Shown here one piece after another: positions 20,415-21,229 of a stretch of DNA of 26,531 nucleotides. Numbering within the stretch: position 1 is the stretch's first letter; each line of letters opens with the position of its first letter. Under the pieces are notes generated by a model. That model worked only from the letters and a program-made list of their open reading frames with translations. It was not told the origin of the DNA and searched no databases. Source of the stretch: Thermoproteota archaeon (GTDB lineage: Archaea; Thermoproteota; Nitrososphaeria; Nitrososphaerales; Nitrososphaeraceae); the NCBI GenBank assembly GCA_046733815.1, contig JBKPPX010000296.1:1-26531 (forward strand), read 5' to 3'. Made by a program: the position numbers and the translations under genes.

Positions 20415-20729
20415 TCACTTCATTCTAACTTTAATAATATCAGTATGATCTTCTAATCCAATTTTCAGCCTGAAGCGCAGCCATCTCCATGAACTTACAG
20501 CAGTACTTATAATTTTGCCAGCTTTGAGTTCATCAAATGCTTGGTTAACCTGATCGAATTTATATTTTCCACAGACCACTGATTGAATTTTTCCAGACCT
20601 TGCCAGAGCGACTAGGTTCACCAAATCGGCAAACTTATTCCTGTGCGCACGTATCCTCAGTTGCTTTCTAAATAAATTGATAGCTAATGTTCTATCTAAA
20701 AAAATATCTGAAATGCAAGAACTTGGCAA
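20415..20729 (-). pseudogene. C-terminal remnant of a Zn-dependent (MDR) alcohol dehydrogenase
   Basis: FADLVNLVALARSGKIQSVV..KYKFDQVNQAFDELKAGKII..AV matches the C-terminus of MDR ADHs; the catalytic N-terminal three quarters are absent. Confidence 0.7.
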
Positions 20730-20742
20730 GCACTTAGCTATA

Positions 20743-20750
20743 TTTATAAG
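20743..20750 (+). promoter_or_regulatory. TATA box of the C/D sRNA
   Basis: TTTATAAG ending 21 nt before the sRNA terminal stem. Confidence 0.6.
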
Positions 20751-20771: not shown

Positions 20772-20859
20772 GGGATGCTGATGAAGATTCGGAAGAGCCG
20801 ACTGATGAGTAGTAATTAAACTAGCAAATGACGAGGATTATGAGTTCCTGAGGCATCTC
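20772..20859 (+). ncRNA. Dual-guide box C/D methylation-guide sRNA
   Basis: Terminal stem GGGATGC/GCATCTC; C box TGATGA 20779-84; D' CTGA 20802-05; internal hairpin TAGT/ACTA; C' ATGACGA 20828-34; D CTGA 20848-51; both guides match recognisable RNA targets. Confidence 0.88.
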
Positions 20860-21229
20860 ATTATAAATAGGACTAGATTCATACTAACAAAGACAACTAA
20901 GGACAGACCAGAAAAAAGGAAGAATTAGAACTAATTCCTTTGGGCTACAATTAGTCAACAGATAACACAGTTATTAATTACAAGATTATGCAAAATAAAT
21001 TTCAAGAATCCAGCGTTTGAATTATCTGCTGTAGTAGACATGAAAAACACATATTATTATAGCAAATAAACGGGACCTCCTTATCTATTATTATGTCAAA
21101 GGGCATAAGTGACGATAAATTTATGAATTATACTTTATAAAGAAAATTTCTTTATTACTTTAAAATAGGGTTTATTTTTGTATAACACATTGAGGAACTG
21201 ATCTAATCTAATGAGATCCAGACAAATAA

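Follow-up and report, generated by a model that had tools for sequence, protein, structure and literature searches.

In archaeal box C/D sRNAs, believed to be scarce in mesophiles, spacers of ~12 nt are typical of the class without being strictly defining. Canonical dual guides usually address two rRNA sites no more than 100 nt apart or combine a tRNA guide with an orphan guide, and in most tRNA-targeting archaeal sRNAs the second guide is an orphan (PMC6009581, PMC7994747). Box C/D-guided formation of Cm34 in tRNA-Met has been documented in haloarchaea (PMC4033218), whose guide RNA sR-tMet (RF02163) is credited to Joardar et al. 2011, as cited in PMC4033218 and PMC6601510. A guide for Cm34 of tRNA-Met has been predicted in Pyrococcus (PMC7994747), and Cm34 of human elongator tRNA-Met(CAU) has been shown to be guided by a box C/D RNP, that of SNORD97/SCARNA97 (PMC6601510). 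On the rRNA side, SNORD49A and SNORD49B guide Cm4456 (Cm4426) of human 28S rRNA (PMC9941101).

We analysed a 26,531-nt stretch of DNA (the window) from the 2.26-Mb, 72%-complete assembly of a soil archaeon of the Nitrososphaeraceae type, in which a candidate element occupies positions 20772-20859 of the plus strand. On comparative sequence grounds, this element is highly likely to be an independently transcribed box C/D guide sRNA, a single-copy member of a family conserved across the ammonia-oxidising archaea, that would direct 2'-O-methylation of the LSU rRNA nucleotide equivalent to C2510 and of C34 in tRNA-Met. We infer its transcription, its assembly into an RNP and the two methylations from the features described below. 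Ammonia-oxidising archaea are globally important nitrifiers, and with the element they very probably possess a genuine small guide RNA that had so far escaped cataloguing. When the whole window was scanned at Rfam gathering thresholds, no family reached its threshold. A permissive scan returned only sub-threshold box C/D matches (16.8-19.6 bits against gathering values of 37-54), all short of family membership: SNORD49 (RF00277; 19.6 bits, E = 0.012, gathering 37), of which only the guide and the boxes aligned, Pyrococcus sR41 (RF01126; 18.6 bits, E = 0.018, gathering 54), and sR-tMet (16.8 bits, E = 1.4, gathering 50). Rfam 15 holds no family matching the sRNA, the searchable literature yielded no prior description of it in Thaumarchaeota, Nitrososphaera or Nitrosopumilus, and no catalogued C/D sRNA for ammonia-oxidising archaea was found in Rfam 15 or in full-text literature.

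A covariance model built from 14 copies of the element matched exactly positions 20772-20859 with 96.7 bits, which delimits a predicted sRNA of ~88 nt; no open reading frame of 30 or more amino acids covers it. The ends are joined by an 8-bp terminal helix, the C-stem of the C/D k-turn, formed by GGGAUGC(U) at 20772-20779 and (G)GCAUCUC at 20852-20859. In an alignment of 41 sequences, 94% of the cells of this helix were paired and changes on both sides were seen at seven of the eight pairs, with variants such as GGAUGC/GCAUCC, GGACAC/GUGUUC, UGAUGU/ACAUCA, and GGAUCC/GGAUCC. None of 500 shuffles showed pairing and covariation as good, and pairing dropped to 26-46% in slid controls. The preliminary description of this DNA had recognised seven pairs (GGGATGC, 20772-20778, with GCATCTC, 20853-20859) but missed the eighth, 20779:20852, which is UA, UG or CG in all 41 homologues (UA in 14, UG in 14, and CG in 12 of the 40 distinct rows). 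The eighth pair fixes the register of the k-turn, and box C is therefore AUGAAGA at 20781-20787. The TGATGA at 20779-20784 that had been taken for box C is indeed present at that position, but it is an overlapping look-alike ruled out by the covarying pair, and the register built on it had to be abandoned. Boxes D' (20802-20805), C' (20828-20834), and D (20848-20851) lie where they had been placed.

In the revised register, the helix is followed by a 3-nt bulge (G80-A81-U82), the sheared pairs G83.A51 and A84.G50, and the Watson-Crick pair G86-C48, so that boxes C and D can form a k-turn closed by a helix, as in archaeal box C/D sRNAs. The A, U, G, A, n, G of box C are invariant, as are the RAU of the bulge and the GA, in 41 of 41 homologues, and box C has the same form as box C' (AUGACGA; nUGAnGA in 41/41 homologues). 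Box D' of the window is CUGA and reads CUGA, CCGA or CAGA in the 41 homologues, while box D (CUGA) has an invariant GA preceded by two variable letters (CUGA, CCGA, AUGA, and UUGA). The internal boxes, and with them the order C-D'-C'-D, are kept in every homologue. The D'-C' linker (20806-20827) is 22 nt long and variable. The internal hairpin previously proposed to close D'/C' does exist there, but its 4+2 bp are weak (MFE -1.2 kcal/mol) and represent a lineage-specific expansion: the linker ranges from 3 to 33 nt among homologues, the Nitrosopumilaceae-type copies of family f13 having no more than 3 nt (a K-loop). In the k-turn register the D' spacer (20788-20801) measures 14 nt and the D spacer (20835-20847) 13 nt, rather than the class-typical ~12 nt; most members of the sRNA family likewise have 13-14 nt between boxes C and D'.

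Boxes of just 4-7 nt might assemble by chance in AT-rich intergenic DNA, and the G+C content here is 35%. A strict pattern requiring four boxes and a stem of at least 5 bp nevertheless had this locus as its single match in the 2.26-Mb genome and gave no matches in 10 shuffled genomes. Order-wide conservation and the compensatory changes seen both within the helix and between guide and rRNA refute a chance constellation, to which we assign next to no probability.

In a BLAST search of the locus against 60 relatives, the element was found in four same-genus genomes (86-93% identity) and in no fewer than 10 further genera (71-78% identity). Outside the genus, similarity starts and stops at window positions 20773-20857, i.e., at the borders of the sRNA. 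The similarity of contig X25 (~92% alike) ends at 20867, in keeping with the 3' boundary of the element. The covariance model matched 76 of 151 genomes of the order, with one match per genome in nearly all of those; by family, it matched 22 of 23 genomes in the window's own family and 23 of 23 in the Nitrosopumilaceae-type family f13, where the element measures 66-68 nt compared with 88 nt in the window. A scan of ~185,000 species genomes for the combination of two guides and boxes recovered at least 119 loci. Among the matches listed, all titles were thaumarchaeal (Nitrosopumilus, Nitrosopelagicus, Nitrosotenuis, Nitrosarchaeum, Cenarchaeum, Nitrososphaera, Nitrososphaeraceae, and Thaumarchaeota). 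The comparison with relatives that the preliminary description had proposed as a check thus came out in its favour: BLAST and the covariance model showed boxes, both guides and helix conserved across the order. The family is order-wide, single-copy and easily annotated, and the covariance model could serve to annotate it in genomes of the order. In one genome of the same genus (G006, L005:1501-1582), only the 5' half of the sRNA gene was present, up to box D'; box C', box D with its tRNA-Met guide, and the spacer that separates the sRNA from the FtsX gene were absent. This half gene may reflect the natural loss of a dispensable RNA or a faulty assembly.

The element is preceded by a TATA box, TTTATAA, at 20743-20749 (+), i.e., at -29 to -23 relative to the helix start, which we predict to be the sRNA's own promoter; the element itself had been noted earlier, but the gap to the helix is 22 nt, and not 21 nt. 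TATA-like elements at -26 to -31 were found in most homologues from several genera. The host also encodes the three proteins expected of an organism with box C/D RNPs: fibrillarin (294 bits) has Nop5 (228 bits) as its neighbour on contig C423, and genes of the L7Ae family occur on contigs C278 and C57.

The sRNA is divergent from a gene of the zinc-dependent alcohol dehydrogenase (ADH) family, which flanks it at 15 or more loci from at least four genera. At those related loci the ADH gene is intact (350-367 amino acids). In the window it is reduced to a remnant on the minus strand (20496-20648) comprising only the last 51 of ~367 codons; ~950 bp of the ADH region has been lost, and the deletion ends ~110 nt upstream of the sRNA TATA box. 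The "decayed zone" in which the element had been said to lie is to this extent borne out, namely for the ADH gene. A paralogue 59% identical to the ADH is present on contig C262. Downstream on the plus strand there is no gene for ~670 nt, and the next gene, coding for an FtsX/MacB-type permease, is convergent; the element is therefore not a 5' leader. Segment 21250-21453 is ~75% identical to the same-genus genome G005 only and has no clear coding frame.

This neighbourhood bears on whether the element could be an L7Ae-binding k-turn that regulates a neighbouring mRNA instead of a trans-acting guide. L7Ae binds mRNA k-turns in some archaea (PMC5539422), and the divergent arrangement with the zinc-ADH gene is conserved at the loci counted above. 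The sRNA, however, lies on the strand opposite to ADH behind its own TATA box, has no mRNA to lead on its own strand, and has been kept in the window despite the ADH deletion, while both of its guides have conserved, covarying targets. An mRNA-regulatory role accordingly appears to us highly improbable.

The source genome's own rRNA is absent from the 72%-complete assembly, and the rRNAs of relatives from its genus and its family were therefore used as targets. The D' guide, GGAAGAGCCGA (20791-20801, with G20797 as the N+5 nucleotide), forms 11 of 11 Watson-Crick pairs with the LSU rRNA of G003, G005, G020, and G010 (two same-genus genomes and two from other genera), in which its sole perfect complement is ...GAUG-UCGGCUCUUCC-CAUCC.... 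Judged on these relatives' rRNAs, the duplex covers the 9-10 nt or more of complementarity to a stable RNA, at a sensible N+5 position, that a guide should have. Against the 16S and 23S rRNAs of G003 and the source genome's own tRNAs, the LSU match scored 22; the best of the alternative rRNA or tRNA targets scored 12 and was rejected, and shuffled D' guides reached 22 in two of 1000 trials. In the annotated E. coli 23S rRNA, the homologous CUCGAUGUCGGCUC begins at position 2499, and the control positions A2058-A2062, A2451, and U2552/G2553 agree. With the numbering so anchored, the N+5 nucleotide is E. coli C2510; the site is beside the peptidyl-transferase centre (PTC), just 3' of the PTC nucleotides G2505/U2506. 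The rRNA target foreseen in the preliminary description was thus located, as the equivalent of C2510 in the LSU rRNA of same-genus relatives. The gap between GCC(G/A) and box D' is exactly 1 nt in every homologue, so the register of the LSU guide is invariant. The guide and its target change together between families: family f1 combines guide GGAAGAGCCG with LSU rRNA CGGCUCUUCC, and family f13 combines guide GGAAAAGCCG with LSU rRNA CGGCUUUUCC. This change (GAG/CUC versus AAA/UUU) is a compensatory co-variation, and the pair provides a clean example of guide-target co-evolution.

The D spacer, GGAUUAUGAGUUC, contains a tRNA-pairing part at 20836-20846 that is complementary to nucleotides 30-40 of elongator tRNA-Met. 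This guide, GAUUAUGAGU, has its complement, ACUCAUAAUC, in the source genome's own tRNA(CAU) (G000:C75:912-988), with which it would form 11 bp, 10 Watson-Crick and one G.U. The tRNA has a GCCGGGG acceptor stem of the G1-C72 type and a UUCGA/UCGAA anticodon stem; because of these two stems it is not an initiator, and it is distinct from a second CAU tRNA found in relatives, which has a tRNA-Ile-like GGGCCC acceptor. We infer that it is the elongator tRNA-Met, whose anticodon loop would be the tRNA target that had been anticipated. With a score of 21, it was the best target of the D guide, and shuffled guides reached this score in nine of 1000 trials. tRNA-Ile(GAU), which shares the anticodon arm, scored 17 and was rejected, G34 producing a G.G clash. 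The core of the D guide, GAUUAUGAG, is conserved order-wide.

Several peculiarities of the tRNA partner were seen in relatives. Elongator tRNA-Met carries introns in some of them: in G020 (L057:1501-1594), one of ~17 nt follows position 37/38, and the guide matches the pre-tRNA at 12 of 12 positions and the spliced tRNA at 11 of 12; in G093 (L059:1501-1597), a non-canonical intron interrupts the anticodon stem in its 5' strand. In genus g5 (L028 and L029; tRNAs L066 and L067), the D guide is GGGUUAUGAG, which would match perfectly the second CAU tRNA with its GGGCCC acceptor, probably tRNA-Ile2, and tRNA-Met via a G.U pair. One g5 guide may thus serve two tRNAs.

The position of C34 relative to box D differs among homologues. 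Of the 41 aligned homologues, 24 have a 12-nt D spacer, with 2 nt between GAG and box D and C34 at N+5, as do 64 of the 79 parsed loci. The separation is 3 nt in the window and in 17 of the 41 homologues; it is shared by the window's genus and by several further genera of the Nitrososphaeraceae, and it makes G20842 of the window face C34 at N+6 and A20843 face U33 at N+5. The N+5 register for C34 is thus not supported in the window's lineage, where a 1-nt insertion shifts it to N+6. One locus (L035) differs from its genus mates in this respect; the insertion therefore arose more than once, and it is a natural test of the N+5 rule.

It is conceivable, though rather unlikely, that the RNA works as a C/D guide in a lineage which, for all its additional nucleotide, obeys N+5 strictly, methylating U33, or nothing, with the RNA then acting only as a chaperone or placeholder, and leaving C34 alone. 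The geometry of the window and of the 17 homologues is what this reading predicts, and guides that pair with their targets while mismatched or inactive are known in Pyrobaculum (PMC6009581). Against it, the insertion has occurred repeatedly while the guide otherwise stayed the same, a sign that function was kept, and C34 is at N+5 in most homologues (the 64 of 79 given above). U33, moreover, is not known to be 2'-O-methylated, and the U-turn is supported by its 2'-OH. The reading that we prefer for the lineage with the additional nucleotide is that C34 would still be the substrate, for example if a single guide U adjacent to box D were bulged out; in the window's D guide, with one of its two U's extruded, C20847 could pair with G30. 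A different solution, which we consider unlikely, is that in lineages with a 13-nt D spacer the RNP picks a nucleotide other than N+5, producing either Cm34 from N+6 or a previously unknown Um33. If it did, the archaeal "N+5 ruler" would be flexible in vivo, and the single-nucleotide guide differences among close relatives would constitute a natural experiment on its operation.

Related C/D sRNAs were found outside the order, in another family: G242 (L083:40-110, minus strand) and G228 (L084:44-107, minus strand) resemble the window sRNA in terminal stem and C box and share its LSU guide (GAAGAGCCGU before CUGA), joined to unrelated D guides. Two of the four phylum-level matches (G282 and G283) were weak, without both guides, and were set aside. 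Because G242 and G228 share the LSU guide without the tRNA-Met guide, the LSU half appears older than its combination with the latter. The tRNA-Met guide probably joined the LSU half in the ancestor of the ammonia oxidisers, giving what PMC6009581 terms a "composite" sRNA.

The two sRNAs from outside the order, in which stem, C box, and LSU guide persist with unrelated D guides, also suggest that the D' half, apparently the older, is able to work without the tRNA guide, and raise the question of whether only the LSU guide of the window sRNA is functional, the tRNA-Met match being coincidental or a relict. Across the order, however, the D guide core equals the LSU guide in conservation, the guide is centred on a wobble base that is methylated by C/D RNPs in other archaea and in humans, and a match of equal score arose in less than one in a hundred shuffles (the nine of 1000 mentioned above). 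We therefore regard an sRNA with a single working guide as very improbable. The dual-guide box C/D sRNA with one rRNA and one tRNA target put forward in the preliminary description is supported: both targets were found, the boxes, both guides, the helix, and the TATA-like element are conserved across the order, and the machinery is encoded.

By analogy with the established pathway, L7Ae would bind at two places, the C/D k-turn at the terminus and the C'/D' motif in the interior, and Nop5 and fibrillarin would then assemble on the RNA. In the resulting RNP, the D' guide would pair with 11 nt of LSU rRNA and lead to 2'-O-methylation of the C2510 equivalent, i.e., the SNORD49 site. The D guide would pair with nucleotides 30-40 of elongator tRNA-Met, leading to 2'-O-methylation of wobble C34; this predicted task is that of haloarchaeal sR-tMet, the Pyrococcus tRNA-Met guide, and human SNORD97. 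The family thus predicts two 2'-O-methylations, at LSU C2510 (E. coli numbering) and, as Cm34, in elongator tRNA-Met. That a single RNP combines one guide for the PTC region of the rRNA with another for the wobble base of tRNA-Met might possibly reflect a meaningful co-regulation of the two marks and not a historical accident.

Like the canonical dual guides of Pyrobaculum, Sulfolobus, and Pyrococcus (PMC6009581, PMC4644070, PMC7994747), the window sRNA has the order C-D'-C'-D, k-turn and K-loop motifs, and guides immediately upstream of D and D', and by analogy it would depend on L7Ae, Nop5, and fibrillarin. It differs from them in size (88 nt, with 13-14-nt spacers, as opposed to ~50-60 nt, with 12-nt spacers), in pairing with one rRNA and one tRNA site, and in being found in mesophiles and conserved across a whole order. 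The preliminary description had called such a mixed rRNA/tRNA dual guide unusual, in agreement with published surveys (PMC6009581, PMC7994747).

With sR-tMet and sR41, the window sRNA shares a D guide (..UAUGAG..) directed against the anticodon loop of elongator tRNA-Met and placing wobble C34, and the Rfam models of both align to the window's D guide and boxes. In the Rfam consensus alignments, however, the D' regions of sR-tMet and sR41 do not align to the window's LSU guide; the D' guide of the window sRNA has a conserved LSU rRNA target, and the window copy has one additional nucleotide before box D, which places C34 at N+6. Some relatives resemble H. volcanii in having an intron-containing tRNA-Met. 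SNORD97/SCARNA97 is likened to the window sRNA by target alone, the predicted guided Cm34 of elongator tRNA-Met(CAU); it is eukaryotic and resides in the nucleolus and Cajal bodies.

The D' half, in turn, resembles SNORD49, whose guide GGAAG(U/A)GCCG-N-[D' box] pairs in the same register with the universally conserved ...GUCGGCUCUUCC... of LSU rRNA; in the Rfam alignment, the SNORD49 guide, GGAAGUGCCG-U-CAGA, takes the register of the window's D' guide. From the sequence correspondence, human Cm4456 would be the equivalent of E. coli C2510. SNORD49 is eukaryotic and intron-derived, and its other half differs and carries no tRNA guide. The two guides are possibly of common descent; alternatively, they may have converged on the same conserved rRNA site. 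One archaeal RNA would unite the predicted tasks of SNORD49 and of sR-tMet/SNORD97, and the fact that in humans the two sites are served by separate snoRNAs, SNORD49 and SNORD97, bears on the age of these guided marks.
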